The notes: a model not told the origin generated them from the sequence alone. 64,000 bases of DNA from a virus (IMGVR_UViG_3300020183_005033:1-64000), one strand, 5' to 3'; positions 1-45,787 are shown, counted from the stretch's first letter. A program made the numbers and translations.

Positions 1-72
1 GCCATCCAAAGGCTTGGCAGGACTTGGAACGCTATTGTTAAAATGGGCAAGGAGTTAGACAAGTTGCCATGA
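1..72 (+). CDS. 3' end of upstream gene (partial)
   Basis: Frame 1 is open from base 1 to a TGA at 70-72 that overlaps the next ATG (ATGA coupling). Confidence 0.5.
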   Translation, partial: AIQRLGRTWNAIVKMGKELDKLP

Positions 73-3000
73 AAACACTCAAAGACCTAACAGACAGAAT
101 TGCTGCAGAACACGGCTTGGAGTGGTATCGACCGCTTAATAAAGCCGAAGATTCTGCCGGAATGACGGCTATTGACTTGGGTAATGGCTATTCGCTGCAC
201 CATGAGCATTCTGAGAACGGCCATGACATTTGGGCTGTTGGGTTTAACGGCGAGCGTGCTGGCACCTTCATGTTAAGAACAGAAGACACTCGCAGAGGCA
301 AGCCCATGGTTGCTTGGGCTGGCCTAGAGAAGCCACATAGAGGTAAAGGTATCGGAACCCTTGCCTATAAGGCGTTAGCTGTTCATTACGGTGGGCTAGA
401 CTCAGACAAAGCATCGTCATCCGATGAAGCCGTTAAGGCTTGGATAAGGGCTGGCGGGCGTCAAATGAAGATAAAAAGTCAATTTGGCAAGCCTCGTTAT
501 ACTTTAGATGGAGACAAGAAACGCCCTGTTGTGCAGTGGAATGAAGAGTTAGTAAAAGCCCCAATGATGAACGAAGGGAATGCTTGGCAAGAACCTGTTC
601 AGACCGGACTAAGGGATTCTGACATAGAAAAAATTAAAGAAGGCGTTAGCGGTAATCATACAATAAAAACTTTTAATCTTCCGAATGATTTATACCACCA
701 TGTAATTACTCATAATAATAGATTCGTGGAACATATTATTTCCGATGACGAAGACCCTTTTGCAAACGGAATCACTCGCGTAGCTGGAGATATTAATGAA
801 AATGGGCACTTAATTATCGGCAGTTCTCAGACTGAACCATACCATCAAAATAAAGGATATGGAAAGCTTGCCTACACACAGGCTCTAAATTATCACGGCG
901 GATTAGTAAGCGATGTGGATTTATCTTATACGGCTAATTCTATTTGGAAACATTTAAAAACTTTGCCAAATGTTGATGTAAAGTTTGGAAAAAAAGGAAC
1001 GCCGCAAAGGCATCTTGCTACTTTAAAAAAATCCTCCGACCTTAACACTCTCATCCAACAAGCCAAAGCTCGCCTTGAAGGCGTTAGGAAGGTTGGCTCT
1101 CAAGAGCCGCGCCCCATGATATTTGCCAATAAAGATGGGACAAAACACGGTTTTGTGACTGTAGACCCTTCTAAACAAGGCCAATGGCGTGTCACTCACT
1201 TTGTAAACAACAAGCCTGCAGGCCATACAGAAGCACCGACTTTCAGCCACGCTATTAAGGCTGCACACGATTCTAGCTACAACGTCTTTAAGGAAATTCG
1301 TGAAGAAGAGATGTTTAAGTCTCAGATTTTACAAAAAGAAATAAAGACTGTTTTTCACGGGTCAAGAACCCCTGTTGATAAATTTTCTCAGGAAGAAGCA
1401 AACAAAAGAATAGGCAGATGGGGAGCGGGAGTTTATTTTGCCGACAATCCCAAAGAAGCACAAAGTTACGGACAAAATGTTTATCAAACTCAAATAGATA
1501 CAGATAAACACTTGGATTTGCATACTGATTTTGATATTAATAAGTTTAATCAGTATGCAACTAACCATCCAGACCAAAAAACAGTTAAAGAAATTAATGA
1601 TATAGCAAAAAATGTACCAAATCCAGATTATATCGACATGTTTGACCATGTGTCGCCAAACGACGAAAACAGAAAAAAAATGTTGTCAGAATTTATTAAA
1701 CATTCTGGCTACAATGGAGTTAGATACGAATTTAGAAACCCTTCTACCATTCAAACTTTGCTATCATTGCCAATTGCAGTTATGTTGCCAAATTTTGATG
1801 TAAACAAAATTCCCAAAAGAAAAAAAGGAAAAAACACTCAATCATACTACACAAAATTTGACACTGATTTTGATATTAGTAGAGCGGAGTCTCTCACAAA
1901 AGCTGCTCATCCGTCAGACCTCAAAAAACTTGCCAACAAAACAAACCCAGAAGCTAATGAAATTGTTGACGCGGCTCCTCATGCCATTCACACGCCCGAC
2001 CAAGAATACGTTGACTTTCTTAACCACCCTAAAGTTCAAAAAGGTTTAGGCAGTAGAGACGTAGGCGGAATCTCCGCAAAGATGGTACACAAGGTAGGCG
2101 ACAATACCTATATGGCCAAGCCCTACCACAAAAGAATCGAGTCTGCCACTAGGGCAATGAACCCTCATCCAATCTCTGGGTGGTCTACGATTGCTACAAA
2201 GAATCTTTTTCATTCTGCAGGAATTGGACATTTGTGTGAAGACGTAGCCTTTCACGAGCACAACGGCATTCCAATGACTGTTCATAAGTTTGCAACTGAC
2301 GCTCAACAATCTAATGTTTTACGCCACATTAAAGACTCTGAAACCGAAGCCGATGCTAAAAAAATAGCTATTATGGACTTTTTGACTAATAACCTAGACC
2401 GCCATGGTGGGAATGTAATGGTTCGCCAAAACAAGACAGGAAATTATAATCTTTTAGCTATTGACCATGAGAGGAACTTTCAGTACAACCAACCTGCCAG
2501 CTTAAGATACAGGGGTAATCCCTATGAAACACCCCGCGCCCATTTAATACACACTGGCCTAAAAGGCGCTGTCTCTACTCCTACTTGGATGGTCGATGAA
2601 GAAGAGACTCATGTACCAGAAGGGCAGACAACAAAACATTGGTGGAAAGCAAATAGAGATAACATATTAAATTCATTTAATAAAGATATAGAAAGTATTA
2701 AAGACCCGCACCTTAAAAAGCATATTCATACTAACTTTATGAGAAGAGCTGATTGGCTCGATGAATTTTCCCATCCAGACCACTATTCTTTTTTTAGTGA
2801 ACATAACAATTCCACTCCCGTTGAAATATTCAAGGAACGTCGCCCAAGAACAGACTACAAGGCAATCATGAAGAACTTGCCTGAAAACCCCTACAAGGCT
2901 ATTGGCGTTATTGACGGCCTGTTCTCTAAAAAGTTATCTTTTGCTACTAGAGAAACTCTCGCAGACCTTTGGAACGAACAAGTTGACAAGATGTCTGGAG

Positions 3001-3209
3001 AAGAGGTTGGAAATTACCTTAAAGATATACAAAAAACAAAAAATCATCCCCATCCCAAGGGAGTCTATTACTCTTTTATGAACAGATTGCTTGAAAAAAA
3101 TCATCGACAGGGAATGCAGCATTTAGTACAAAATAACATGATAGATTTGCCATATTGGAAAAATCTGTTTGAGATAAGATTAAAACTGGGGGCAATGAAA
3201 AAACAATGA
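69..3209 (+). CDS. Multidomain polyvalent/polyprotein: GNAT, GNAT, small domain, ADP-ribosyltransferase-like, PI3/4-kinase/HipA-like kinase
   Basis: GNAT motif A (HRGKGIGTLAY; HQNKGYGKLAY); ART-like FHGS...GAGVYFADNPKEAQSYG...GYNGV; kinase AKPY...NLDRHGGN...AIDHE; domains separated by LNKA/LVKA/LKKS/MFKS/LTKA. Confidence 0.8.
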   Translation: MKTLKDLTDRIAAEHGLEWYRPLNKAEDSAGMTAIDLGNGYSLHHEHSENGHDIWAVGFNGERAGTFMLRTEDTRRGKPMVAWAGLEKPHRGKGIGTLAYKALAVHYGGLDSDKASSSDEAVKAWIRAGGRQMKIKSQFGKPRYTLDGDKKRPVVQWNEELVKAPMMNEGNAWQEPVQTGLRDSDIEKIKEGVSGNHTIKTFNLPNDLYHHVITHNNRFVEHIISDDEDPFANGITRVAGDINENGHLIIGSSQTEPYHQNKGYGKLAYTQALNYHGGLVSDVDLSYTANSIWKHLKTLPNVDVKFGKKGTPQRHLATLKKSSDLNTLIQQAKARLEGVRKVGSQEPRPMIFANKDGTKHGFVTVDPSKQGQWRVTHFVNNKPAGHTEAPTFSHAIKAAHDSSYNVFKEIREEEMFKSQILQKEIKTVFHGSRTPVDKFSQEEANKRIGRWGAGVYFADNPKEAQSYGQNVYQTQIDTDKHLDLHTDFDINKFNQYATNHPDQKTVKEINDIAKNVPNPDYIDMFDHVSPNDENRKKMLSEFIKHSGYNGVRYEFRNPSTIQTLLSLPIAVMLPNFDVNKIPKRKKGKNTQSYYTKFDTDFDISRAESLTKAAHPSDLKKLANKTNPEANEIVDAAPHAIHTPDQEYVDFLNHPKVQKGLGSRDVGGISAKMVHKVGDNTYMAKPYHKRIESATRAMNPHPISGWSTIATKNLFHSAGIGHLCEDVAFHEHNGIPMTVHKFATDAQQSNVLRHIKDSETEADAKKIAIMDFLTNNLDRHGGNVMVRQNKTGNYNLLAIDHERNFQYNQPASLRYRGNPYETPRAHLIHTGLKGAVSTPTWMVDEEETHVPEGQTTKHWWKANRDNILNSFNKDIESIKDPHLKKHIHTNFMRRADWLDEFSHPDHYSFFSEHNNSTPVEIFKERRPRTDYKAIMKNLPENPYKAIGVIDGLFSKKLSFATRETLADLWNEQVDKMSGEEVGNYLKDIQKTKNHPHPKGVYYSFMNRLLEKNHRQGMQHLVQNNMIDLPYWKNLFEIRLKLGAMKKQ

Positions 3210-3871
3210 TTCTTCATATTAAAAGTCATATGACTAGCTTCGAGCACTCAGTTCCTGCAAACTATGAAGGAATCAAAAGCCTTTTTGATATGTTTCCTGC
3301 TGTAGAACAAATAGTTGCACACCATCAAACCCTTAAGGGAGCTATCGACGAGATTGTTGAGTACCTTAGCTCTCACCATATGGATGCTTGGCTGTCTGCA
3401 GAATCACCTCTCAAAAAAGCAGAAGACATGTCTCGCGTCTCGTCAATCGTTGTCTCTACTGAAGACAAGATGCTGATGCTCCAAAGACGTGACAATAAGA
3501 AGTGGACGTTCCCTGGGGGTCATCTGAATGACACAGAGACTCACCTTCAAGGAGCTATCAGGGAGCTATGGGAAGAAGCTGGCATCAAAGCTAACCCAGA
3601 CAAGATGGTTCTATTGGGCAACAAGAAGACATTTCAAGGAAAAGACATCTACGTTTACCTTTATATGGTTTCATCAGAGATGGCAGCATCTGCCGCCAAC
3701 GACCCAGACAAAGAAGCTCAAAAATTTCAATGGATTCCACATATTATCCCCAAAGAGATTGAAGACAACCTCTATATCCCTGTAGGAGACAACGCTTCTT
3801 TGAGTATTTTTAGTAAGTGGCTTCTTAGGAAGAAAGTCGATGCTCTTAAGAGCAAGCTAAAGAAAGATTAA
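3206..3871 (+). CDS. Nudix hydrolase with N-terminal extension
   Basis: Nudix box GGHLNDTETHLQGAIRELWEEAGI; LKKA motif just before the Nudix domain. Confidence 0.85.
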   Translation: MILHIKSHMTSFEHSVPANYEGIKSLFDMFPAVEQIVAHHQTLKGAIDEIVEYLSSHHMDAWLSAESPLKKAEDMSRVSSIVVSTEDKMLMLQRRDNKKWTFPGGHLNDTETHLQGAIRELWEEAGIKANPDKMVLLGNKKTFQGKDIYVYLYMVSSEMAASAANDPDKEAQKFQWIPHIIPKEIEDNLYIPVGDNASLSIFSKWLLRKKVDALKSKLKKD

Positions 3872-4077
3872 TTCAAATCTTCTTTATGATTTGGTTTATT
3901 TTCAATGGCTCGTATTAGTCGAGCCGCGTAGTGTCTATGAAAATCTTGATTTGTTTTATTGGCTGGATTTTGAGCTAATGAATCTAAGTACGCCATCAAA
4001 ATCAACTTGGCTGTCCGATTATCTTCGCTGATTCTTTTAATAAGACTTTCGTCAATTTTGTACTCAGTTTGATTCAT
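3868..4077 (-). CDS. hypothetical protein
   Basis: ORF packed into a minus-strand run of genes. Confidence 0.6.
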   Translation of the reverse strand: MNQTEYKIDESLIKRISEDNRTAKLILMAYLDSLAQNPANKTNQDFHRHYAARLIRAIENKPNHKEDLN

Positions 4078-4081
4078 TTTT

Positions 4082-4705
4082 TTATTTCTTTATGTTTTCG
4101 TACTCTTTATCTTTGATGTAATAATCTCCAGAGTTTGTTGATTTAATTTGTTTTGGACCGTGTATGTACCACTCTCCGCCATTTTCTGCAATTTTACTAA
4201 TAAGCTCTTCGTAAGACATATACATTCTGGCCGCACATCTAGTTAGTAGTCCGTACTCCTGGGCATAACTTTTAATTCCTTGAATGAGAACTTCCGGAAC
4301 AGTAGCCGTTGTTCTGCTGCTAAAAACAATATAATGATGGTGTACCATCAAAAGAGTATTTTCTCTAAACACTCTAATTGTACAGTGCTGATAAATTTCA
4401 AAAGCTGCGCTGGCTGCCAAATCAGCAATACAAATAGTCCTGTAGCGAGACATCCTAGAAATAATAGCCTCGGCGGCATCAACATCTCCGCCGTTGCTAG
4501 AAATATACATCAGTACAGTATCACCAGGCTTGGCATCCTGAATATGCTCATCAAAACGACTAACAGCCAGCCAATCAACATCAAAACTAAAGTTAAAAAC
4601 TTTATTAGGGGACACCTGCACTTCTGCCAACACGTCGGGAGGAACATTCGGTACAGGTTTTGTACAGGACATCAAAAACATCACTAGAAGAAATAAATAT
4701 TTCAT
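4082..4705 (-). CDS. ClpP-like serine protease, predicted lipoprotein
   Basis: Lipobox MKYLFLLVMFLMS-C; ISSNGGDV, AASAA, LLMVH ClpP-type motifs. Confidence 0.7.
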   Translation of the reverse strand: MKYLFLLVMFLMSCTKPVPNVPPDVLAEVQVSPNKVFNFSFDVDWLAVSRFDEHIQDAKPGDTVLMYISSNGGDVDAAEAIISRMSRYRTICIADLAASAAFEIYQHCTIRVFRENTLLMVHHHYIVFSSRTTATVPEVLIQGIKSYAQEYGLLTRCAARMYMSYEELISKIAENGGEWYIHGPKQIKSTNSGDYYIKDKEYENIKK

Positions 4706-5265
4706 TTTGTTGGCCTTTTAGCTGGATAGAACACGGAATGAACTAGCTTTACACATTGTTCTTTGGTCAAAAGTCCCTGAGTCATCAAAGTAAACAAGGC
4801 ATTACGGGCTGCTATCGACGGACTATAGGAGAGACACATATGGACTACGTTTAATAAGGCCACAGCCTCCTCGTCGATATCACTCCTATAGAACATCATA
4901 TTGTTTTCAAGTTCTGCCCTGACAGCAGAAATTCTTTCGTCTAGCTCTCGTCTTTCCCTAATGTTTGCTTGAAGAGTCTTTTCTACTTTTTTAGCAATAA
5001 GGAGGTTAACTCCTAATTTGTCTGACACTTTGCCTAAACAAAACAACAATATACGCCTTGCAGCAAAGTCATCTAAAAAGTTACCAGACAATACGATGTC
5101 AATTTTGTCCAGTGAATCAATATTAGGCAGGCGAACAAAATCAACAATTGTGCCTTGCCATTTAGGGTCTAACGTCTTCCAGATACGCAAGCCAGCTTCT
5201 GATATGTAATACACATCAAATCTGTTAATTTTCCTAGATGTATCAAGAAGTTGACTTTCTTTCAT
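4702..5265 (-). CDS. hypothetical protein
   Basis: 187 aa ORF, coupled to neighbours. Confidence 0.65.
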   Translation of the reverse strand: MKESQLLDTSRKINRFDVYYISEAGLRIWKTLDPKWQGTIVDFVRLPNIDSLDKIDIVLSGNFLDDFAARRILLFCLGKVSDKLGVNLLIAKKVEKTLQANIRERRELDERISAVRAELENNMMFYRSDIDEEAVALLNVVHMCLSYSPSIAARNALFTLMTQGLLTKEQCVKLVHSVFYPAKRPTK

Positions 5266-5268
5266 AAA

Positions 5269-5490
5269 TTACTTTTTGCGGCCTTTCTTTGGTTTTGTGT
5301 CAATTAGGAGTTTGACCGCCTTGCCTTCTAAAATAGAAATGGCCATAGAGGCAGGCATTGATAACCAGGTCATTCCGCCGTCTTCTGTATAAATAGAACA
5401 GTGTTCTTTACGGGTCATTACACGGCAGACTTTGTCTGAGTTAATCCAAACTTCATTGCCATCGCTGTCTACAAAGTTAATAAGCTTCAT
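5269..5490 (-). CDS. hypothetical protein (small beta-rich)
   Basis: 73 aa ORF, coupled. Confidence 0.6.
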   Translation of the reverse strand: MKLINFVDSDGNEVWINSDKVCRVMTRKEHCSIYTEDGGMTWLSMPASMAISILEGKAVKLLIDTKPKKGRKK

Positions 5491-5837
5491 TTTTTCTTCC
5501 TTTTCTTTGTATAAACTTCCTCTTCCTCGTCATCATACTCAGCATACTTATCATAAGCATCTTCGGCTTCATCTTCGTGGTCGTTTCGAGGATACCCCGG
5601 TGACTTGTAGTTTTTTAACTTATCGTCTCTTTTGGGAGATTCTTTGGACTCCACCTTCTTGGTAATCACCACTTCGGCTCCTCCGGGCACCAGTCTAATC
5701 TCCTGAGTAGGAAACCTAAAATGAACGTAAGTTATGAACTCGTCTATAGTTTCTTTTTCCCTTTCCCACTTAAAGTCAAAAATCTCAGTCACAGCTCTGC
5801 CAGTCAAACATTCGTACTTACGACTAGATACCTTCAA
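5487..5837 (-). CDS. hypothetical protein
   Basis: AGGAG RBS upstream of TTG; acidic/basic tail. Confidence 0.6.
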   Translation of the reverse strand: MKVSSRKYECLTGRAVTEIFDFKWEREKETIDEFITYVHFRFPTQEIRLVPGGAEVVITKKVESKESPKRDDKLKNYKSPGYPRNDHEDEAEDAYDKYAEYDDEEEEVYTKKRKKK

Positions 5838-5876
5838 CTCATACTCCTAAATAGAAGGTTATTCGTAACTTCTATT

Positions 5877-6128
5877 TTAATCAGGAAAATGACGCTTTAA
5901 GCCGAAATCAATGATTTTAGACACTTCTTCTTTGGCCATACCGCCATTTTTTAGGCATTCTAAGACATACAGTAAAATACAAGCCGTTGCTTCATTTCTA
6001 AGATTTTGGTCTTCAATAGCATTAAGCCTGTTGGCAAAGTCGTGTGATAATAGACTAACCAAAATTGAAACTTGGTCTACTTTTTTATTCTTTTTGTCTT
6101 TTTTTTTATTAATATCAATGACTTTCAA
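5877..6128 (-). CDS. hypothetical protein
   Basis: 83 aa ORF. Confidence 0.5.
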   Translation of the reverse strand: MKVIDINKKKDKKNKKVDQVSILVSLLSHDFANRLNAIEDQNLRNEATACILLYVLECLKNGGMAKEEVSKIIDFGLKRHFPD

Positions 6129-6238
6129 AAGAATCCTTTCTAAATCTAAATAGCGTTGAATTTGTTGACTTTTTGAAATCGCCGTTAGATTATAAAATGA
6201 TAGTAGCCTACTTTGGCCGCCTAGACAATGGAGAACTT

Positions 6239-6811
6239 ATGGAAAAGAAAATATTAGACACAGCCCTTGCTCTCATTAAACCTTATGAGGGCTGCCACCT
6301 TAAAGCCTACAAGTGTCCTGCTGGCATTTGGACTATTGGTTGGGGGCAAACAGGCAAAGATATTAAAGAGGGAACTGTTTGGACTCAAGAGCAGGCGGAT
6401 GCTGCCTTAGAGAAAAGTGTAGCCAAGTTTACTGAAGGTGTCCTTAAACTTGTTAAAGTTCGTTTGCGCCCAGAGCAAATTGGAGCCTTAGTGTCTTTTG
6501 CCTACAACGTAGGTCTAGGTAACCTTGAGAAGAGCACCCTCCTAAGACTAGTTAATGCCAAGACTGACACTGAAGACATCGTTAAGCAATTTCTTGTTTG
6601 GAACAAGGCTGGTGGCAAGACCCTTATGGGTCTTCTCTACAGAAGAGCATCGGAAGCTCTTATGTTTAAGTCAGAAACATTTAAGAGATTCAATTCCCTT
6701 AAAGAAATGGAAGCTGATTTTGCAATTGAGCATGAGTTATTGCCACCCAAACCAGTCACCCCATCCAAACCCAAAGTAGCCAAGACACCAACCCCCAAGA
6801 AGAAAGCCTAA
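6239..6811 (+). CDS. Endolysin, GH24 phage lysozyme
   Basis: EG...AYKCPAGIWTIGWGQT, ALVSFAYNVG, WNKAGGK..GL..RR.SE; start placed at ATG 6239 after GGAG (ORF track start 6173). Confidence 0.92.
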   Translation: MEKKILDTALALIKPYEGCHLKAYKCPAGIWTIGWGQTGKDIKEGTVWTQEQADAALEKSVAKFTEGVLKLVKVRLRPEQIGALVSFAYNVGLGNLEKSTLLRLVNAKTDTEDIVKQFLVWNKAGGKTLMGLLYRRASEALMFKSETFKRFNSLKEMEADFAIEHELLPPKPVTPSKPKVAKTPTPKKKA

Positions 6812-6814
6812 TGT

Positions 6815-7375
6815 ATGTTACTCGAACTCTATAATAAGATTCCTAATTGGGGCAAAGTGGGCGTTGTATGCCTAGTAGCAGGCTACTTTATCGGTCGTAA
6901 TGCCGTTCCCACCCATACTGAAACAACTACAGACAAGACAGTTGTGATTGAAAAGGAGAAAAACGAAGAAGAGTCTAAGTCGTCTGAAGAGTCTACAACC
7001 AAGAAGACTGGCCCTGTTATTATCGTAAGAGAGGAGACAAGACCAGACGGAACCAAAATTGTAGAAAAAACTAAACAAGGCGGAACTAAAGAAGAGACAA
7101 AGAAGAAAGAAGACAATTCTAAAAAAGTAGAAGAAAAGACAAAAGTAGTTGAAGTTATTAAGGAAGTTAAGGTTACTGAGCCTCTTCCGAGCTATTCTAT
7201 CGGCGCTCATATCAAGGCACCTGTAGACGAAATTACGTCTAACCACCTAAAGAAAGAGTTAGACGTAACCGTTGGTTATAGGGTGTATAAGAGTTTCTGG
7301 CTTGAAGGAGTCGTATCGACCCCCGTGGATTTCAAAAAGCCTTCAGTCGGAATCGGGTTCAGAGTTGAGTTTTAA
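6815..7375 (+). CDS. Membrane-anchored protein with C-terminal amphipathic beta strands (possible spanin-like lysis protein)
   Basis: N-terminal TM segment, charged linker, ends GIGFRVEF; directly follows the endolysin. Confidence 0.55.
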   Translation: MLLELYNKIPNWGKVGVVCLVAGYFIGRNAVPTHTETTTDKTVVIEKEKNEEESKSSEESTTKKTGPVIIVREETRPDGTKIVEKTKQGGTKEETKKKEDNSKKVEEKTKVVEVIKEVKVTEPLPSYSIGAHIKAPVDEITSNHLKKELDVTVGYRVYKSFWLEGVVSTPVDFKKPSVGIGFRVEF

Positions 7376-7924
7376 TCCGTGAGTAGCGGCGTCTTTTTCA
7401 ACTTTCTCTTTAAAAACTTTCATTATGTTCTTTTGAGAAAGTTTCTTAACGACGCCGGTCTTCTTGTCTCTCTTGTGATACTCAGATAGAACAATACCCT
7501 CGTGGATATAAAAGCTAAGAAAAGGTATCATTGCTACCTTAAAGACGGCTGGTATCATTGCTACCTTAAAGACGGCTTTTTCTATCTTAGGGGCCTCTTC
7601 GTTGTCAAACCTGCCATCCATCTCATAAAGAACGTACAGCTCTACGCCTAAAGCCTTGGACAATTGAATCAATACGGCTTCTGACTTAGTCAAGTCTAAG
7701 TCGCCATACCAAACTTTGCCGTACTCCTTAGTGATTAGGTTACTATTAAATACAACAAAGTTTTCTTTATGGCGGTCGCTGTATCTGCTCTTAGACCCTA
7801 ACATTGAACTTCTGATACCAAGAAACAGCTCAGCGAGCTGCTGAGCCTTTTCTTTAGTCATAGGGTCATTGAGGTCAATGACTGGTTTTTTTTCTAAGCT
7901 GACAATCTTAGTTGTCATTTTCAT
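7343..7924 (-). CDS. hypothetical protein
   Basis: ORF with internal 9-aa duplication AVFKVAMIP; start adjusted from 7987. Confidence 0.6.
   Translation of the reverse strand: MKMTTKIVSLEKKPVIDLNDPMTKEKAQQLAELFLGIRSSMLGSKSRYSDRHKENFVVFNSNLITKEYGKVWYGDLDLTKSEAVLIQLSKALGVELYVLYEMDGRFDNEEAPKIEKAVFKVAMIPAVFKVAMIPFLSFYIHEGIVLSEYHKRDKKTGVVKKLSQKNIMKVFKEKVEKDAATHGLKLNSEPDSD
7524..7577. repeat. 27-bp perfect tandem duplication
   Basis: ggtatcattgctaccttaaagacggct x2, in frame. Confidence 0.9.
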
Positions 7925-8288
7925 CCACTTTCTTCTTTTCAGACAGCACATAAGCTGCCATTGCGATTGTTGCCTTATAAGGAGCAATGGCTTCCTTCAG
8001 ACCGCTTTCTAGTAGCTTCTTGGCTTCAACTGCTCTCTGGTACTCTTCGTGAGCTTCTAGCTCTTCTTCGCCGCGCTGAGCCTGTACAGCGGCTCCCGCA
8101 ATGAGCTCTTCTAGCTCCTGCTGAGACATCTTAAGGACTTCTTGAATGCGGTCAAAGGACATGAACTTAGCTACTTTGCTGTGAATCTTCTTCGGTACTC
8201 CGTATTCCTCAAGCATCCCCTTCTTTTCTTTAGGGGACACATCATCAGTTACTGAATCGTTTGAGTGAATCCTCTTAAGTCTCGCCAT
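7908..8288 (-). CDS. hypothetical coiled-coil protein
   Basis: 126 aa, GGAG RBS. Confidence 0.7.
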   Translation of the reverse strand: MARLKRIHSNDSVTDDVSPKEKKGMLEEYGVPKKIHSKVAKFMSFDRIQEVLKMSQQELEELIAGAAVQAQRGEEELEAHEEYQRAVEAKKLLESGLKEAIAPYKATIAMAAYVLSEKKKVDENDN

Positions 8289-12826: not shown

Positions 12827-13480
12827 TTAAACATGTTTAGCAATAAATTCAAAAGATGTGTCAGCGTTCTCCGCGTTCACAATAAGAGTATCGTCAAAAA
12901 TTAGATTATCTTTAGGCGCATCAGAAATAAGTAATAGTTTTGATGACATAGCCCTTAGTGTAGAAAAATAATCTTCAGAAATGTCATGAACTACCGTAAA
13001 GTATACCTTAGTGTCTGTTCGCTGTGTATCGAACATACAGCTCAGAGTCGTACCATCTTGGCAGTTAACCAAGTAATCTAAAACACGCGCATAGTCATAA
13101 GCCTCCTTTACTACCAAATCAACATTATTATAAGACCTGACAGGGTCGTCAGAAACACGGCAAACTTCATTAAAGTGCATCATAACTTCTTGAAGCAGCA
13201 TAAGAGAGACTGACTCAGATAGCTCCATAATGTCTTTTGATGGCTCTGGGAGTCTATGGGAGTATCCCTCTTCTCTAAGGTAATTAACAGCATCCATGAC
13301 AAATAGCCCCGGCCATGGCATGTACTTAGCCTGAGCTTCTAGGAGCTGCTGTATCACTCCTTGAAAGATGCTATTGTCTTTTGACTTCAACACAACCCAC
13401 ACTGGCACAGGGGTGTGCTTGCTGTAAATAGTTGACTGTTTGTCTCTGAACGCCCAGCGGCTTTTCTCAAGTCTTTGCAT
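12827..13480 (-). CDS. hypothetical protein
   Basis: 217 aa in the replication block. Confidence 0.65.
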   Translation of the reverse strand: MQRLEKSRWAFRDKQSTIYSKHTPVPVWVVLKSKDNSIFQGVIQQLLEAQAKYMPWPGLFVMDAVNYLREEGYSHRLPEPSKDIMELSESVSLMLLQEVMMHFNEVCRVSDDPVRSYNNVDLVVKEAYDYARVLDYLVNCQDGTTLSCMFDTQRTDTKVYFTVVHDISEDYFSTLRAMSSKLLLISDAPKDNLIFDDTLIVNAENADTSFEFIAKHV

Positions 13481-14039
13481 TTGCTTTGCCTTTCTTCTTT
13501 GTAGACTTTTTCTTCTTTGGTTTGACTTCTTTTTCTACAATAAACTGACCATATTCTTTATACCAATAAGCAATCAACAGGGCATCTATGATTCCCTCGT
13601 GGGGCTTACTGCTTCTTTTTGTAGCAAGAAAATCCTCTGAAGGAAAGAACTTTTTTGCAACCTGTAGGCTTCTAGCCTTGGCGTCCTCCAAAGTAGACTC
13701 TGTTTCATGGAGTTTTGTTGCCCAAGTACGGGGAGCAACTAATGCTACATTGTCTGCATAAACAGAAGCCATGGCAAAGAGCAGACCGAAGTTATAGCCA
13801 GAAGTCCAAGCTGAGCTGACCCCCTCCCCCGGTCTTGGTGCCTGCCTTTCCAAAACTACAACATCCGGCTTATAGTTAATCATAAGTTTTCTGACTTCAG
13901 TCAGATTGATTGTAGACTTCTTATTTTTAAGGTTTTTATCAATCGGCATCCTGCCGCGAGCAACGACCACGGAACCATCAAATATTGCATATCCGCCGGA
14001 AATACCCGGGTCAAAAGCCATAATAATTCTTATTTTCAT
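13467..14039 (-). CDS. RuvC-like Holliday junction resolvase
   Basis: FDPGISGG, VVLERQ, DALLIA. Confidence 0.85.
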   Translation of the reverse strand: MKIRIIMAFDPGISGGYAIFDGSVVVARGRMPIDKNLKNKKSTINLTEVRKLMINYKPDVVVLERQAPRPGEGVSSAWTSGYNFGLLFAMASVYADNVALVAPRTWATKLHETESTLEDAKARSLQVAKKFFPSEDFLATKRSSKPHEGIIDALLIAYWYKEYGQFIVEKEVKPKKKKSTKKKGKANAKT

Positions 14040-15037
14040 AAATTATTCCAATCAATAAGATTATCCGTCTTATTTATAATAAATTCTGGCTTCTTTGTCA
14101 ATTCTCCTGCCTCTTGCATTAGTTTTTCTATAGTAGGCAGAACGCGGTCGTTGTGCATTTCAGGGTCTTTGAAACAATGAAAGATAGCTTCTGACCCAGT
14201 AATGTGCAAGTTGTCTCCGTGATTATCTCCGCCCTCTTCTCTGCAGCAAGGACAAGCAACCTGCAATCTGCCGCCAATCTCTGTTGATAGTCCAAGATAT
14301 GTATTCACATACCAATTTATTTTCTTAACGATATCTTTTCTGTCATGCGACGCAGGTGATGCTTGAGCGTCTTTTTGGAAGATTTGATGCCATTTTGTTT
14401 GTTTGTATCGCTCTTCAAATTCAGGTGAGTAAATGATATCAAAAAGTTCTTGATTATTAACTCTGTCAGATATTTCGACAATCTGCTGTACTGTGCCGCC
14501 ACGTCTAGCATTTGGAAACCGAGTGAAGCGAGCGGGGTCACTACATGCACGGTCATTTTTCTCTTCGCACAAATGATGAATCCTGTAAAAGATGTCTTTG
14601 TATTGTAATAAGCCATTGCTTTTAAGTTCTCCTACATGGTGGTAGAGTGGCTCTTTAAGGGAAATGATAAAGTGGTAGGACTTGCCGCCAGAATAGACAC
14701 AAGCAGAGTAGGGTAGACCTAGCTTCTTCATGAATGGAATTTGCTCTTCAAGCGGTAACTTATCAAATTCAATAAGAAAATTTCTAAGAACAAATACATT
14801 TTCAGAAGTTTTATTAATATTAATTTGCTTAGCAGCGTTGACGGCAATGTAGGCACCCTTTTCAAAATCCCTATCAATAAAGTTGACTATGGCCTGTTCT
14901 TTGGGCATAGAGAAATGCTTTTGGAGCAGGTAGTCGGTTGCCCAGACATACTGTTCCTCCCCATATAAAAGAGTCATGTACTTAATAACCGGCATCAACG
15001 CTTCCTTACTGATGCCGTCCCTTGGGGTTTTACGCAC
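14036..15037 (-). CDS. AEP-family primase with C-terminal Zn-binding region
   Basis: IEFD, SGGKSYH, DPARFTRFP; CPCC...HCF. Confidence 0.7.
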   Translation of the reverse strand: MRKTPRDGISKEALMPVIKYMTLLYGEEQYVWATDYLLQKHFSMPKEQAIVNFIDRDFEKGAYIAVNAAKQININKTSENVFVLRNFLIEFDKLPLEEQIPFMKKLGLPYSACVYSGGKSYHFIISLKEPLYHHVGELKSNGLLQYKDIFYRIHHLCEEKNDRACSDPARFTRFPNARRGGTVQQIVEISDRVNNQELFDIIYSPEFEERYKQTKWHQIFQKDAQASPASHDRKDIVKKINWYVNTYLGLSTEIGGRLQVACPCCREEGGDNHGDNLHITGSEAIFHCFKDPEMHNDRVLPTIEKLMQEAGELTKKPEFIINKTDNLIDWNNL

Positions 15038-15051
15038 AACCTCCCCCTTAA

Positions 15052-16068
15052 TTAAAAATTGTCATAATCGTCATTAAAACCCATTGAGCGCTGTTCTTTC
15101 TTAAGACCGCCCGACTCCGCTCTCTTGCGCTGTAATAGCACCTCAGCTACCGCCTCCGCAAGAGGAATATCATACAGCTCATGACGCAACACAGCTTCCT
15201 TGCTGTAAGCAGGAGTCATCTTAGTGCCTGCAAACAATTGCTTCTCATCGGCAGTTAGCTCTCTATCCATGAACTTTTCTACAAGAAAAATAATTTCTTC
15301 GTCTTTTGGGGGTTCTACTTCGCGAACAATGTCGAATCGTCCGGGTCTGCTGGTCAAAGTTTTATTCAATACATCCAAGTAGTTAGTTGTAGCCACAACA
15401 AGAGTTGGGATTCTAAAGACATCTGCGTTACCGTCTAAAAAGTTAAGAAGGTCGGAATCAACCCGCCCTGCTCTCTCTTCTAGTCCAGACCCACCAATAT
15501 CTTCAATGACCAGCAAAATAAGGCTGGCTGCTGTCTCTTGCGCATTGGAAAACATATCAATAAGAGTCTCAAAACTAACTTGCTGAGAATCTACCCTAAG
15601 AATACAAGCCTTGGGCATCTTAACAATCTGACGGCAAAAATAGTTAATGAGGCTAGACTTACCTACCCCCGGTTCGCTGCCAAACAGAAATCCCCGCTTA
15701 GGGGCAATTTTTCTTTTCTTATAAATATCCAATTTTGACATAAACACATCAAAATGCTTCATAAGCTCTCTCGAAGTGTCTGTCTCGTAATACTGAACTT
15801 CGGTCAACTCCATAGGCTGTAGCCCCTCTTCAGGGGTAATACGCCATGCGCCTTCAGTAATCTTGTAGGTTTCTTTTGTCTTAGGAGTTTGGATGTCCAT
15901 ATCTAGCAAATGAGGTTCAGATACCTTAACGACATTTCCTAGCTCATCTACCGACTCAATGGTCTTATTGACAACGAGCTGATAGTTGCCCAACTCTACC
16001 TGCAAACCTGGCTGAAGCTTAGTAATGCTGCGTACCTTAGCAATCTTAGACATAAAAAACTCCGTCAA
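15052..16068 (-). CDS. AAA+ ATPase
   Basis: GSEPGVGKS, VIEDI, ATTN, RPGRFD. Confidence 0.85.
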   Translation of the reverse strand: MTEFFMSKIAKVRSITKLQPGLQVELGNYQLVVNKTIESVDELGNVVKVSEPHLLDMDIQTPKTKETYKITEGAWRITPEEGLQPMELTEVQYYETDTSRELMKHFDVFMSKLDIYKKRKIAPKRGFLFGSEPGVGKSSLINYFCRQIVKMPKACILRVDSQQVSFETLIDMFSNAQETAASLILLVIEDIGGSGLEERAGRVDSDLLNFLDGNADVFRIPTLVVATTNYLDVLNKTLTSRPGRFDIVREVEPPKDEEIIFLVEKFMDRELTADEKQLFAGTKMTPAYSKEAVLRHELYDIPLAEAVAEVLLQRKRAESGGLKKEQRSMGFNDDYDNF

Positions 16069-16334
16069 ATGCTAAAAATCAAATCGTCCATTGATACATA
16101 AGTTCCAGAAAGAGCACCGGAAGCCTCTGCACATATTTGCGGGTCTATAACATCGCTATGCCAGATAGCATTGTCGGAAGACTTGGTAATTGCGGCTATT
16201 GCAACAAATGATTCACTATCATCAATCCAATATTGAGAAATAGTCAAAATAAGCCTCGGAGCGTCATCATCAACATAAAAGGCATTTTGCGAAGTTTGCG
16301 CCAAACCGCCATTCATGTATCTATTTGCTCTCAT
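16065..16334 (-). CDS. hypothetical protein
   Basis: 89 aa; shares YVD..P.R segment with its neighbour. Confidence 0.5.
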   Translation of the reverse strand: MRANRYMNGGLAQTSQNAFYVDDDAPRLILTISQYWIDDSESFVAIAAITKSSDNAIWHSDVIDPQICAEASGALSGTYVSMDDLIFSI

Positions 16335-16587
16335 CTTTTGTCTCCTGAATCAGTTTGCAAGCCCATCTTTCTTGTTGTTTCGGTTTAAATTTTGGGTCGT
16401 AGGCGTCAAAACATCTCAGTCTACCTGTAGCATCACTAAAACCTAAAGCATAAATGTCTATAAACATTTTGCCGTTTTCTAACACATACGCCAAAATGCT
16501 TTGAATCCTAGCCGGAGACTCATCAACATAGTGGGTGTCCTGCTTGGTTTGTTCTGGGCTGCTGAGGTCTACGTAATTAGCTTTCAT
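16321..16587 (-). CDS. hypothetical protein
   Basis: 88 aa; likely paralog of 16065..16334. Confidence 0.5.
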   Translation of the reverse strand: MKANYVDLSSPEQTKQDTHYVDESPARIQSILAYVLENGKMFIDIYALGFSDATGRLRCFDAYDPKFKPKQQERWACKLIQETKDESK

Positions 16588-17594
16588 TGCTCTTCTACAT
16601 CCTCCGCTGGAATTAACACAAAGTTGTCATTCATCTGCCAAGTCGTAATATCTTTCCCATACTTGTAAGGATAACGGACTTTTTGAATCTTAATCCAAGT
16701 ACGCACTTCGTTATTGGCATTGACCTTCTTTACAAGCATAAGGCCGTGGGTAGCATGGGTCAATGACTCTTTTGATTTTCTCAAACAGCTAAACATATCC
16801 CACTGAAAGGCGGAGCGCCCTGCTGGCGGATACATTTGCTGGAAACAAATCACTGGAGCGTACTTAGGAGACTTTCTGCTGTTGATTCTTAAACCAAACT
16901 GCTGACTCATAGTTTCAATCTTCTTAAAGTCTTCTACCTTGCCCTTCCCTGTATAGCCAATATCGGCCATGGCGTTGGAGAGCTGGTCAACAAAAATTAA
17001 GTCAGGGTTAAACTCCTGGGCACACCTAAACGTATAAGTACAGAGAGTCAGCCAGCCCAAGGACAGCCCTTGAGACGACTCCGCATCTTCAATTCGTGAA
17101 TACTGATAAACCTTTCTGAATGCTTTTTCGTAAGAAATTTCTAACATTGCAGCCAACTTACGGCTGATTTCGTTTCTGTATGCCTCAATTGGCAACTCAT
17201 TAGAGACAATCAGGATTCTTCGTTTGGCTGCAATAGCGTGGGCGGCTGACTGCATACAGAATGTTGACTTACCATTGCCTGTGGGCGCACCTACAACTAC
17301 AAATGCTTTTTTGTGTAGAGTTAATTGGAAATCATCGGAGAAGAATGGAACGCGGTCTTCAACCATGTCTTGGAAGTCTTTGGCTTCCGTTAGAGCTTGC
17401 TCAACGAGCCGCTCTTTAAAATCATCTTCGGCTTCTCTTTGCTGGCGTTCAGACTCAGCCAAAAGTTCTCTAATCTGTGCAGGATTTATCAAAATATCTT
17501 TTTGAGTATCTCCAGCTTTAACGGAGACACTCCAAAGGGTATCTGACCCTATATCGCCAAATTGTGGGCTTGTTGATTCGTCTATTTCTGACAC
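16584..17594 (-). CDS. DnaB/SF4-like replicative helicase (divergent)
   Basis: GAPTGNGKST, VSNE, IFVDQL, QKVRY; adjacent to DnaE. Confidence 0.7.
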   Translation of the reverse strand: MSEIDESTSPQFGDIGSDTLWSVSVKAGDTQKDILINPAQIRELLAESERQQREAEDDFKERLVEQALTEAKDFQDMVEDRVPFFSDDFQLTLHKKAFVVVGAPTGNGKSTFCMQSAAHAIAAKRRILIVSNELPIEAYRNEISRKLAAMLEISYEKAFRKVYQYSRIEDAESSQGLSLGWLTLCTYTFRCAQEFNPDLIFVDQLSNAMADIGYTGKGKVEDFKKIETMSQQFGLRINSRKSPKYAPVICFQQMYPPAGRSAFQWDMFSCLRKSKESLTHATHGLMLVKKVNANNEVRTWIKIQKVRYPYKYGKDITTWQMNDNFVLIPAEDVEEQ

Positions 17595-27068: not shown

Positions 27069-28682
27069 TTATCTTGACTCCGAGATAAGAGACTTCAGCT
27101 TACGCAACTCATCCATTTTTTGCAAGTCAGCAGTCAAGCTGAAGCAAGCCGTCGTGCTGCACATGATGGCAAGCTCGCAAGCATTTCGCAACACGCTCAT
27201 GCAAGTTTCGGCAGCATCACAAACTTGTAAATCTTTATAGTGTCCAACTTTGACGGAACCATCCTCTTGAACTGCATACGTTTCATTTTCTTTACGGGGC
27301 GGCGCTTCGATACCAAGGTTCTCAAATACTTTATTAGTGACTGCAGATAGGGCTTGAACTAGGTTTTCAGGCAAGCCACAAGCCAAGGCGGCCTGTTGGT
27401 ACATGACACCACACCCTGGGACAATACCACCTCTCCTAGCTGCCTGAGCTGCCTTAATAGCATCGTCAACGCGGTCTGCTCGCTCCTGCACAGCAGCAGC
27501 ATGCCCAGCACCTACCACGATGGTTACTAGACCTTCTGTCAATTCAGCGTTACGTGCGGCAATTACATCTTTATCAAATGCTGAACGCGAAGCTTCCATA
27601 GCATTGATGTTCTGCTGAGCACGCTTAGGAATAAAGTGATTCTTATTGCGTCCGTGCAATACTGTCTTGTAGGGATGTATGACCGCATGATTACAAGTAC
27701 CTAAGTTTTCTACCTTGGCACGGCCATAAGATGCGCCGTCAAAGATTTCAGCATTTGTGATGGCAGCAATATCCATAAGGATTTGCATACCGCTATTGAA
27801 CTCGGCAGTCTGGCGTACCTTTGAGACAAAGATACTAACCTTGCCTGCGTATTTACGGTTTACGGGGATTAGCTCATTACAAACGCTTTCTGCCACATCG
27901 TAGGCAAACACAAGTAAAGTAAATCTATTGTTGGTCTTGATGCCTAAGTCAGTTACGGCTGCATTAAGTTGTTCAACTGAATGAATTTCGCCGTTATAAA
28001 GCAAGATATATGGATTTTCCATCTGGAAGGGCAGGTTTTCACCTGGCTTATCGGAGCAACTCATGGCCAAAGTTGGGTGGTGGTTATAGCCACGGCCAGC
28101 ATTATAGCCATCCTGTAGTTCAACCTTATAGCGTTCTTTAGCTGCCACATTCTTTTCGACAAGGATAGTGCCATGAACGCTTGTCTTGTCGAGAGCCTCC
28201 ATAACGCAGTTAACAATCTCCATATCGCCGTTAGCAGAGGTCTTAGCTACCATTGCAACCGCTTCAGTATCTTTAACTGCATTTTCACGAATGTAACCAA
28301 TACAGTCTTCAATATGACGTTCTACTTGACGAGCGTAAGCTTGAGGAGCTGCAGCATTTTTTTCTTTAATGGCATTAGCTATGGCAGAGGATAACACGAG
28401 GGTTGAGGTAGTTCCGTCGCCGCTCTCTAAAACAGAATGATTAGCTGCCTGCTTAGCAAAATAATGTACCGCGTGTTTAATTGGGTCGGTAAATTGCATC
28501 CAGCTAATTGTGGTTACACCATCTTTGGTGACAGTTGGTTGCATCTCTCCCATCTGATTTGGCTTATCAAAGATTACAGGTAGACCTGCTGGCCCTAGAG
28601 TTGAACCCACCGCTTCTGCAATCTCACAGAGCGCGTCCACCGCCATATCTCTAGCCTGCTTGCCGACAACTAGTTGTTTCAT
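27069..28682 (-). CDS. groEL: Phage GroEL-like chaperonin
   Basis: TLGPAG, TKDGVT, GDGTTS, TSANGD, RVDDAI, GIVPGCG. Confidence 0.9.
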   Translation of the reverse strand: MKQLVVGKQARDMAVDALCEIAEAVGSTLGPAGLPVIFDKPNQMGEMQPTVTKDGVTTISWMQFTDPIKHAVHYFAKQAANHSVLESGDGTTSTLVLSSAIANAIKEKNAAAPQAYARQVERHIEDCIGYIRENAVKDTEAVAMVAKTSANGDMEIVNCVMEALDKTSVHGTILVEKNVAAKERYKVELQDGYNAGRGYNHHPTLAMSCSDKPGENLPFQMENPYILLYNGEIHSVEQLNAAVTDLGIKTNNRFTLLVFAYDVAESVCNELIPVNRKYAGKVSIFVSKVRQTAEFNSGMQILMDIAAITNAEIFDGASYGRAKVENLGTCNHAVIHPYKTVLHGRNKNHFIPKRAQQNINAMEASRSAFDKDVIAARNAELTEGLVTIVVGAGHAAAVQERADRVDDAIKAAQAARRGGIVPGCGVMYQQAALACGLPENLVQALSAVTNKVFENLGIEAPPRKENETYAVQEDGSVKVGHYKDLQVCDAAETCMSVLRNACELAIMCSTTACFSLTADLQKMDELRKLKSLISESR

Positions 28683-39628: not shown

Positions 39629-40360
39629 ATGGATATCAAAAATTTGCTAGAAGAAATCAACAGCTTGACAGAGCAAGTTGAAAAGCTTGCAAAGTCAGAC
39701 ATGTACAAGGCAGAAGGCGAAGAGAAAGAAGAAGGCGCTGAGATGGAAGGCGGCGAAGCTGCTCCTGCTCCAGAAATGGAAGGCGGCGAAGCTGCTCCTG
39801 CTCCAGAAATGGAAGGCGGCCAACCTGACCAAATTGAAGACCAAGCTGACCAACTTGAAGATGCCGCTGAAGAAGGTGGAGAGTCGCTAGACGAAGTCGT
39901 TAAGGCTCTTGATGACGAAGATCTTCAGGAACTCATGGCTGCTGTTCAGGCTGAAATGGCTCAACGTCAAGGTGGTGCCGAAGGCGCAGCTCCTGCACCT
40001 GCTGCTCCCGAGATGGGCAAAGCTGTCCCTCCAATGCACAAAGCTATGGACGACATGAAAAAGACTATGGACGAAATGAAGAAGTCAATTGACGGCCTCC
40101 GCGCTGAAAATGCTTCTCTCAAGAAGTCAACTCCTGTCAGCCGTCCTGCAGCAATGAACCGCGCTGAAGTTCAGACAATGGCTAAGTCGGATTCTGTTCC
40201 AGAGATGCTCAATAAGTCCGAAGTCGTTGAGTATCTTCTCAACACCAAGGCTCCTGTAGCTCTTGTTCAGGATGCTAACTGGGCTAATAGTCCCGCCGAG
40301 CTTCGCGATGTTTATTCCAAGGCTGAACTCATGGGCGTGAAAATCCCAACTAAGAAATAA
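39629..40360 (+). CDS. putative head scaffold/inner-core protein
   Basis: Acidic, coiled-coil, with about nine [LMY]xK[SAT] motifs; strong codon bias. Confidence 0.55.
   Translation: MDIKNLLEEINSLTEQVEKLAKSDMYKAEGEEKEEGAEMEGGEAAPAPEMEGGEAAPAPEMEGGQPDQIEDQADQLEDAAEEGGESLDEVVKALDDEDLQELMAAVQAEMAQRQGGAEGAAPAPAAPEMGKAVPPMHKAMDDMKKTMDEMKKSIDGLRAENASLKKSTPVSRPAAMNRAEVQTMAKSDSVPEMLNKSEVVEYLLNTKAPVALVQDANWANSPAELRDVYSKAELMGVKIPTKK
39743..39820. repeat. 33-bp tandem repeat (MEGGEAAPAPE)
   Basis: atggaaggcggcgaagctgctcctgctccagaa x2 plus a partial copy. Confidence 0.85.
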
Positions 40361-45532: not shown

Positions 45533-45787
45533 GTGTCAGACAAAGAAGAAGAATTGCCAGACAATGTCTATCCTTACAGTCACTTCAGGCTTAGGCAGTT
45601 CTCTGAAGAAGTCAAAAGGCAATTGCCCAAGGAGCTATGGGATAACCCGCCAGATGCCGACCGCAACGAAAAGATTAAAAAAGCCCTAAATAAACAATCA
45701 AACATTGTTGATAGGATAAAATGGGACAGGGCCGTTACGACTCAGAAGAGCAAGGCAAATCTTAAACTTGTGAAAGACGAAGAATGA
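45533..45787 (+). CDS. hypothetical protein
   Basis: GAGGA RBS; ends NLKLVKDEE. Confidence 0.6.
   Translation: MSDKEEELPDNVYPYSHFRLRQFSEEVKRQLPKELWDNPPDADRNEKIKKALNKQSNIVDRIKWDRAVTTQKSKANLKLVKDEE

Follow-up and report, generated by a model that had tools for sequence, protein, structure and literature searches.

Two kinds of phage protein resemble the locus described here. Polyvalent proteins, reported from phages and conjugative elements by Iyer, Burroughs, Anand, de Souza and Aravind (2017; PMC5512222), are predicted, in the part of that paper covered by our survey, to be packaged and delivered with the DNA, and one of their families has a GNAT domain beside an ART domain. A second group consists of cargo cut by head proteases: in the portion of the SPN3US study surveyed (PMC10052503), the prohead protease cuts capsid, portal and ejection proteins (gp245) at one motif, AXE, and the cuts identified, self-cleavage aside, remove N-terminal propeptides only, while Alt, an ADP-ribosyltransferase, stands among the T4 cargo in the surveyed part of PMC9503650. 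Polyvalent proteins and head-protease-cut cargo are each already known. Here we analyse a polyprotein gene (P0001) and the Nudix gene that follows it (P0002), both at the start of the viral DNA stretch IMGVR_UViG_3300020183_005033:1-64000 (hereafter the window), which is the first 64 kb of a linear IMG/VR record of 122,436 bp with a completeness estimate of 75%.

The two genes most likely form part of the cargo-polyprotein locus of a lytic, roughly 160-kb phage related to Myxococcus phage Mx1, and we have almost no doubt that P0001 belongs among the polyvalent proteins sensu Iyer et al. 2017. More tentatively, we propose that in a mostly uncultured group of lytic phages of 100-170 kb, of which Mx1 is a cultured outpost, the capsid-maturation protease may act as a true polyprotein protease, with interchangeable enzyme modules strung on a universal Leu-x-Lys↓Ala/Ser connector (the arrow marks the predicted cut throughout) and capsid-loaded chains being cut into a combinatorial set of enzymes that are injected and modify the host.

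Comparison with described systems

As in polyvalent proteins, several unrelated effector-type domains (ART-PolyVal, GNAT and a kinase, with a zincin nearby) are gathered in one phage polypeptide, and mosaicism is extensive. The first-pass annotation, made from the DNA alone, had already described this mosaic as polyvalent-type, which is borne out by the presence of GNAT, ART-PolyVal and kinase in one viral open reading frame (ORF) of 1046 aa and by a score above cut-off for the signature family PF18760. Set against the part of the 2017 account that we surveyed, however, this locus differs in that each module border carries one defined site, which also ends the capsid propeptide, in that single-module genes have leaders carrying the same site, and in that the processing enzyme proposed here is the head protease, whereas theirs is an embedded MPTase. 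The kinases also differ, by description: that of Iyer et al. is of the Ser/Thr/Tyr type and lacks its C-terminal subdomain, whereas ours resembles PI4K-II and CtkA, its C-terminal part being helical and modelled with confidence.

The resemblance to prohead-protease cargo of T4 and SPN3US/phiKZ lies in a motif common to capsid, protease and cargo, in propeptide-like leaders, and in several motif copies. In contrast to SPN3US cargo, the sites here stand between up to five enzymes of one chain, which is the logic of a polyprotein, and P1 is Lys rather than Glu; for the present locus both likeness and difference are known at the level of sequence. No defined connector retained between shuffled enzymes and common to a capsid propeptide emerged from our literature search, which covered parts of the main articles.

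Module organisation of P0001 and P0002

The features of the locus are as follows, all on the plus strand.

1..72: upstream HExxH-module (zincin-like) gene, 3' end, with its last 23 codons and the stop TGA at 70-72
69..3209: P0001, polyprotein gene, 1046 aa, with 529 representative relatives at E ≤ 1e-3
69..143: P0001 leader, residues 1-25, ending ..PLNK↓A, conserved in relatives even with another first module (P0097)
144..557: GNAT-1, residues 26-163, ending ..EELVK↓A, Pfam Acetyltransf_1
558..1031: GNAT-2, residues 164-321, ending ..TLKK↓S, a putative divergent paralogue of GNAT-1
1032..1319: small alpha/beta domain, residues 322-417, ending ..EEMFK↓S, predicted local distance difference test score (pLDDT) 81-95
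1320..1337: spacer of six residues, SQILQK, between the predicted cuts K417↓S418 and K423↓E424
1338..1901: ART-PolyVal, residues 424-611, ending ..ESLTK↓A, Pfam PF18760
1902..3209: kinase, PI4K-II/CtkA/HipA-like, residues 612-1046 and stop, matched by Pfam in the whole protein and by Foldseek, with a confident AlphaFold2 (AF2) model
3206..3871: P0002, Nudix gene, 221 aa, its ATG overlapping the TGA of P0001
3206..3418: P0002 leader, residues 1-71, ending ..SPLKK↓A, conserved in the related locus L003
3419..3871: Nudix module, residues 72-221 and stop, Nudix box intact
Joint motifs of P0001, by residue (and nucleotide): LNKA 23 (135), LVKA 161 (549), LKKS 319 (1023), MFKS 415 (1311), LQKE 421 (1329), LTKA 609 (1893)
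Joint motif of P0002: LKKA 69 (3410)

Both ORFs (69-3209 and 3206-3871, plus strand) and all motif coordinates are as the first-pass annotation had placed them, and its series of leader, GNAT, GNAT, small domain, ART and kinase, with Nudix in the next gene, is upheld, though weakly for the second GNAT. The first of the two GNAT domains is secure, with Pfam Acetyltransf_1 at residues 45-104 scoring 24.7 bits (cut-off 20.7) and an acetyl-CoA loop that reads HRGKGIG. The second is more weakly indicated: it has no Pfam match of its own, and a BLASTP match to GNAT-1 (E 4e-5) runs across the acetyl-CoA loop, present as HQNKGYG. Its structural model gives weak but repeated GNAT matches in VIA (HAT1 Z 5.3, RimL 4.9, Rv0998 4.5), and its nearest named atlas clusters are viral GNATs, to be read as a lead only. 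The ART-PolyVal match covers residues 425-516 and scores 33.5 bits in the whole protein and 35.4 in the fragment alone (cut-off 31.2); the motifs FHGS and GVYFA are conserved with the relatives P0008 and P0013. The Nudix module is recognised by Pfam (NUDIX at residues 78-178 of P0002, 60.4 bits against a cut-off of 21.1, E 2.3e-16), and its Nudix box reads GHLNDTETHLQGAIRELWEEAGI, for a consensus Gx5Ex7REUxEExGU. The small domain has no clear structural relative, the best VIA Z being 6.0 and Foldseek returning nothing at E ≤ 0.001 for the model that covers it and GNAT-2, and a phmmer search of PDB sequences gave nothing for P0001.

Structure prediction, which had been suggested as a check on the motif-delimited fragments, gave models of differing quality along P0001. 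The small domain and the kinase (residues 612-1043, modelled from a 95-sequence alignment, pLDDT about 85-98) are confidently modelled, while the whole-protein AF2 model left GNAT-2 and ART under pLDDT 50. A separate second model of residues 160-430 raised the GNAT-2 core to 74-78, with the loop region poorly modelled. A homologue search with residues 164-611 gave only 14 proteins, too few for deeper alignments, and ART was left with a model below pLDDT 50 that is not usable. Stretches of low AF2 confidence flank the joints (20-27, 160-178, 302-323 and 419-430), and confidence rises sharply at 611/612. In the leader of P0001, AF2 places a helix at 2-14 and pLDDT falls below 50 at 20-27. No convincing match elsewhere in the proteome was obtained for this leader or for that of P0002, which gives no sign of a common capsid-targeting peptide.

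In Pfam the kinase is borderline: PI3_PI4_kinase at residues 765-807 scores 27.5 bits in the whole protein (cut-off 27.1), whereas the fragment alone, at 26.3, falls just under. Foldseek places it nearest to PI4K-II alpha (4hne_B, E 7e-5), Helicobacter pylori CtkA (3akk_B, 1.4e-4) and HipA (4pu5, 3e-3). The likeness to CtkA, type II PI 4-kinases and HipA, spanning Foldseek E values of 7e-5 to 3e-3, extends to a conserved DRHxxN catalytic loop and the metal-binding Asp of an IDH motif; identity, however, is 10-14%, and the kinase here begins with a conserved A-[VI]-x-P-x-D-[WF] and is extended at its C-terminus by helices. Since D770, D777, N782 and D799 are nearly invariant across the 95 sequences, the kinase module looks catalytically competent, as judged from alignment; D777, N782 and D799 are invariant or nearly so in a separate set of 38 sequences as well.

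Joints kept among shuffled modules

A search of 1.84 billion representatives returned the 529 relatives of P0001 listed above, and the junction counts and match borders given here rest on the best 150 of them. The relatives that we fetched are mosaics, having the same modules in other orders and beside other neighbours, and the borders of their matches to P0001 cluster at the motifs (residues 1 to 164/167, 21/22 to 164-170, 155 to 341, 316-319 to 423-427, 417/418 to 606/607, and 603-609 to the end). The most informative joint is that before the kinase, at residue 612, where [LMVI]xK↓[SAGT] stands exactly in register in 81 of 104 alignable representatives, each less than 50% identical to the others, whatever lies upstream: the motif is in register in 72/87 with more than 30 upstream residues and in 9/17 among the rest. 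Elsewhere in those same proteins it occurs at 387 of 78,188 positions (0.005 per position). At P3, 78 of the 104 have Leu; at P1, 89 have Lys and 13 Met; at P1', 74 have Ala and 16 Ser; P4-P10 show no conservation. A hydrophobic P3 together with a specific P1 is the layout of the sites of T4 gp21 and herpesvirus assemblin, and gp21 cuts the T4 internal proteins and Alt at Leu/Ile-x-Glu.

The same pattern extends to other modules. The N-terminal joint of GNAT-1 is kept in 11/12 relatives, and its C-terminal joint is in register in 10/12 and within one residue in 12/12, with at least six different modules downstream. Before the small domain, [LI]-x-K↓[SA] is in register in 8/10 matching rows, and the N-terminal joint of ART is kept in all three rows as LxK↓E (↓G in one distant row), reading LxK↓EIKTV(Y/F)HGS in P0008 and P0013. 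Double sites with a short spacer, here MFK↓SQILQK↓E, are common in relatives, where the spacers have 5-15 residues.

DNA homology to the close relative L003 offers a further view of the shuffling. It falls into three blocks (nt 70-550, 1026-1306 and 1880-4100, or residues 1-160, 320-412 and 605 onward), and the four mosaic breakpoints sit 1.0-6.3 residues from a motif lysine, a coincidence matched in none of 200,000 simulations in which the six motifs were placed at random.

Proteins with a single module bear directly on the function of the joint. At least seven stand-alone kinases start Met-Ala-[Val/Ile]-x-Pro-x-Asp-Trp and have no Leu-x-Lys, which indicates that the fold does not include the motif and that the module naturally begins at the P1' residue; nine others have a propeptide-like leader of 5-20 residues that ends in the motif. 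Likewise, an xxK↓SED joint precedes Nudix as the last module of five polyproteins (P0006, P0007, P0090, P0097 and P0119), while here and in L003 Nudix is a separate gene with a 71-residue leader that ends PLKK↓AED or PLKK↓SED. The HExxH module is a fused terminal unit in P0004, P0008, P0013, P0017, P0020 and P0152, and in L003 a separate gene whose leader ends VVLNK↓T. That single-module proteins have a leader ending in the joint motif suggests a removable propeptide rather than a mere inter-domain linker. We judge it likely that the joints are proteolytic sites, and the earlier suggestion that the motifs are processing sites has strong comparative support, drawn from the joints kept between shuffled modules, from the single-module leaders and from the motif at the capsid propeptide.

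Some relatives show further arrangements. Five (P0018, P0065, P0076, P0098 and P0150) have two or more tandem kinase modules split by the motif (e.g. ..LKK↓S, ..LNK↓A, ..LQK↓T). In L004 (5982-10004), P0008 and P0013, many joints consist of a conserved spacer of ~15 residues between two sites, K↓S-[LF]-K-x-L-T-x-E-Y-E-x-L-x-K↓, which is present three times in one 1340-aa protein and could serve in recognition or be a helix that is cut out. The relative P0007 (678 aa) has a ParB/sulfiredoxin-like DGHHR module where ART would stand, and the polyprotein of Mx1 also ends in a ParB-like module.

The head protease as the proposed reader of the joints

The motif is found well beyond the polyproteins. 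The capsid protein (56928-58463; phrog_752, E 9e-13) begins ..DMAK..RMAK↓S, the start in capsid relatives at 23-24% identity is DLVK↓TLEGLVK↓T, and the capsid protein of Mx1 has ..ELRK↓A at the aligned place. A scaffold-like ORF (39629-40360) has nine motifs in 243 aa, and a candidate head protease (genome 111912-112694; phrog_1028, E 6.7e-6), which shares 38% identity (E 1.7e-24) with the N-terminal domain of the Mx1 'putative prohead protease', has five in its C-terminal 100 residues. Among five related phage records (four with a motif-joined kinase gene, and the complete relative G002, which has motif-joined polyproteins but no known kinase module), a homologue of this protease is present in 5/5, against 1/5 for the HExxH module and 1/5 for a ClpP-like neighbour; the HExxH count comes from a sequence search, which divergent copies may have escaped. 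In L003 and L004, moreover, tail-fibre and virion-structural genes of the same strand precede the locus.

We therefore lean, though by no great measure, towards a reading in which the head protease reads the joints and the pieces are capsid cargo. P0001 would then consist of self-contained modules linked in series through hydrophobic-x-Lys↓small sites, with the Nudix module having such a site behind its own leader, and the head-maturation protease would recognise these joints as it would the site at the propeptide of the capsid protein. The P0001 chain would be cut at K25↓A, K163↓A, K321↓S, K417↓S, K423↓E and K611↓A into about six pieces, and the Nudix protein at K71↓A; the freed enzymes would travel in the capsid, enter the host with the DNA, and there acetylate, ADP-ribosylate, phosphorylate or hydrolyse host targets.

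Several observations weigh against this. The candidate head protease has no Pfam match and no match to PDB sequences by phmmer (nor, in the PDB search, has the capsid protein), and its assignment depends on phrog_1028 and the annotation of Mx1. The locus lies far from the head genes (capsid at 56.9 kb, protease at 111.9 kb), with similar distances in the complete G002. P1' is Glu before ART, and Asn, Asp or Thr in some relatives, against Ser or Ala at the capsid site. A literature search for proteomic, N-terminal or biochemical data on the phage of the window or its relatives, the virion proteomics of Mx1 included, found none. The number of motifs in P0001 is at background level: [LMVI]xK[SAG] occurs six times in 1046 aa (5.7/1000) compared with 155 times in the 38,063 aa of 118 ORFs (4.07/1000), the DNA polymerase of the same genome also has six, and we dropped plain enrichment as evidence on this account. 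In an unbiased all-against-all test of the ends of high-scoring segment pairs, a motif lay within 12 residues of 257/1062 starts (24%) and 204/1064 ends (19%), compared with 1111/7850 random positions (14%), a weak result; since this test is blurred by local alignments that end inside the divergent kinase, we prefer the in-register alignments. Finally, a HExxH zincin-like gene lies directly upstream and is translationally coupled, its stop at 70-72 overlapping the start of P0001.

This last point leads to the best of the alternatives, which we nevertheless regard as improbable, namely that the joints are cut by another protease, either the adjoining HExxH module (in cis or in trans) or a host protease, possibly in the cytoplasm and with no packaging, the polyprotein then being a device for expression and shuffling. 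The frequent position of the HExxH module at the end of relatives, or as their neighbour in L003, fits such a role, as do the zincin-family neighbours of its atlas model, which include MPTase-PolyVal, M78 and M76 (weak, with TM 0.29-0.39, and leads only). A precedent exists in the surveyed part of Iyer et al. 2017 (PMC5512222), where the MPTase of phage P1 DdrB is predicted to cut DdrB before packaging and polyvalent MPTases may release domains by autoproteolysis. Yet the HExxH module has no Pfam peptidase match, was found by sequence search in one of the five records with motif joints that all have the head protease (with divergent copies possibly missed), and itself stands behind a leader and joint motif, as other cargo units do. 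Specificity set by P3 and P1 would be unusual for a zincin, and cutting by this module would not account for the presence of the motif in the scaffold-like protein, the head protease and the capsid propeptide. The ClpP-like lipoprotein gene at 4082-4705 (minus strand) was considered as a processing enzyme and set aside, given its lipoprotein signal, its position among minus-strand early genes and its presence in one of five related records.

Somewhat less likely again is that the joints stay uncut, Leu-x-Lys-Ala/Ser being a conserved inter-domain linker or docking signal in one uncleaved polyvalent effector comparable to the N4 virion RNA polymerase or plasmid ArdC/TraC1. Cleavage products have never been observed for the P0001 family, and polyvalent proteins delivered unprocessed are listed in the surveyed part of PMC5512222. 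A linker, however, does not explain why single-module proteins (Nudix here, HExxH in L003 and nine kinases) should keep a leader ending in the motif, nor why the motif stands at the capsid N-terminus; conservation at the joints is restricted to P3, P1 and P1', and the double sites with spacers of 5-15 residues resemble excised peptides. Lastly, that the motifs are chance hits of a permissive four-residue pattern in a protein rich in lysine fits their background number and the surely incidental VQKG at residue 656, inside the folded kinase, but for the six junction motifs chance is refuted by the in-register alignments and the breakpoint simulation, leaving it a negligible probability.

The number of motifs is thus ordinary and their placement is not due to chance. 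The earlier statement that they fall between enzyme folds holds for their placement, in relatives and at breakpoints, and not for any excess in number.

Myxococcus phage Mx1 and the distribution of the family

Among cultured phages, Mx1 (OR576727.2) has, between its capsid and tail-sheath genes, a 1479-aa protein annotated as 'NUDIX hydrolase', in which GNAT, GNAT, ART, Nudix, an unassigned module (X) and a ParB-like module follow one another with LxK↓S/A joints; a gene annotated as 'kinase' (619 aa) comes next. Identity to the proteins of the window phage is 24% for the capsid, 26% for the portal, 38% for the head-protease domain and 34% for the Nudix module. The two phages differ in that Nudix is fused in Mx1 and its genes lie inside the head-to-tail structural block, and in that its 'putative prohead protease' of 1239 aa has an extension of ~1000 residues. 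The annotated kinase of Mx1 has no BLASTP match at 1e-3 in the proteome of the window phage. In the Mx1 protease (13002-16721), a stretch after the protease domain duplicates the start of the mature capsid protein (AMEAGNFNA.PSTL..GSA) and is preceded by a hydrophobic-x-Lys site; it may be an assembly segment that mimics the capsid.

Of 82 candidate stretches, 27 were confirmed, which places the kinase family in 27 IMG/VR contigs of ~30-170 kb. Searches of 50,697 cultured phage records gave no matches, whether by tblastn with the kinase module, by tblastn with P0001 or by blastn with window 1-8000, while 185,579 bacterial and archaeal species genomes gave only two weak partial matches (2/139 candidate stretches). 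This near-absence from cultured phages and species genomes points to a family of lytic, mostly uncultured large phages. The choice of query matters to such searches: with P0001 the search for related loci found no viral relative, whereas P0006, P0008 and the kinase alignment did find some.

If the joints are indeed cut in the capsid, ready-made acetyl-, ADP-ribosyl- and phospho-transferases and a Nudix hydrolase would be delivered at infection, and the enzyme set would evolve through module swaps at a standard connector. Such a connector would enable rapid in-frame shuffling and would be a counterpart, in DNA phages, of the polyproteins of RNA viruses and the cassettes of polymorphic toxins. 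It would also provide a rule (hydrophobic-x-Lys↓small at module borders and at the capsid propeptide) by which injected effectors could be found and delimited in metagenomic phages, giving hundreds of candidate domains for anti-defence or takeover, all with clear-cut borders, the kinase clusters alone numbering 529. Mx1, which is culturable and has a homologous polyprotein, is the place where cutting of the joints could be tested directly.

Borders of the locus and neighbouring genes

The first-pass annotation had begun the locus at position 69, overlooking the gene end at 1-72. Translated in frame 1, this segment matches the C-terminus of the 263-residue HExxH protein of L003 (8778-9569) at 21 of 23 residues, the final 20 all matching, and its stop (70-72) overlaps the ATG of P0001 (69-71). 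Because the window thus starts in the tail of the upstream HExxH gene, the polyprotein locus, which comprises at least three translationally coupled genes, is cut off by the end of the contig and extends beyond it. From the size of the complete relative G002 (162,747 bp, with terminal repeats), whose capsid protein is 97% identical to that of the window phage, about 40 kb of the latter would be missing, the start of the polyprotein locus included. In L003 (9577-9978) and L004 (12424-12831), a gene of 133-135 aa lies between the HExxH gene and the polyprotein; it is absent here, and it has no internal junction motif, only IVKS at its C- or N-terminal end.

Elsewhere in the window lies another polyprotein locus, which the numbering of the first-pass annotation makes the first. 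Its 1275-aa protein (45784-49611, plus strand) has 14 junction-type motifs and leucine-rich-repeat-variant (LRV)/HEAT-like repeats (Pfam LRV, E 1.5e-40). A 923-aa protein of that locus, at 42704-45475 (plus strand), has a part, at about nt 44375-44686, that is similar to GNAT-2 of P0001 (29% identity, residues 205-307, E 1.2e-7), which suggests a module common to both polyprotein loci. The ClpP/S49-like peptidase gene at 4082-4705 (Pfam CLP_protease, E 2.3e-5) has a lipoprotein-type signal with a lipobox Cys, as for an exported phage peptidase, and is syntenic in L003 and L004, with two matches in G002. A phage GroEL-like chaperonin (phrog_5725, E 3e-73) is encoded at 27069-28682 on the minus strand.

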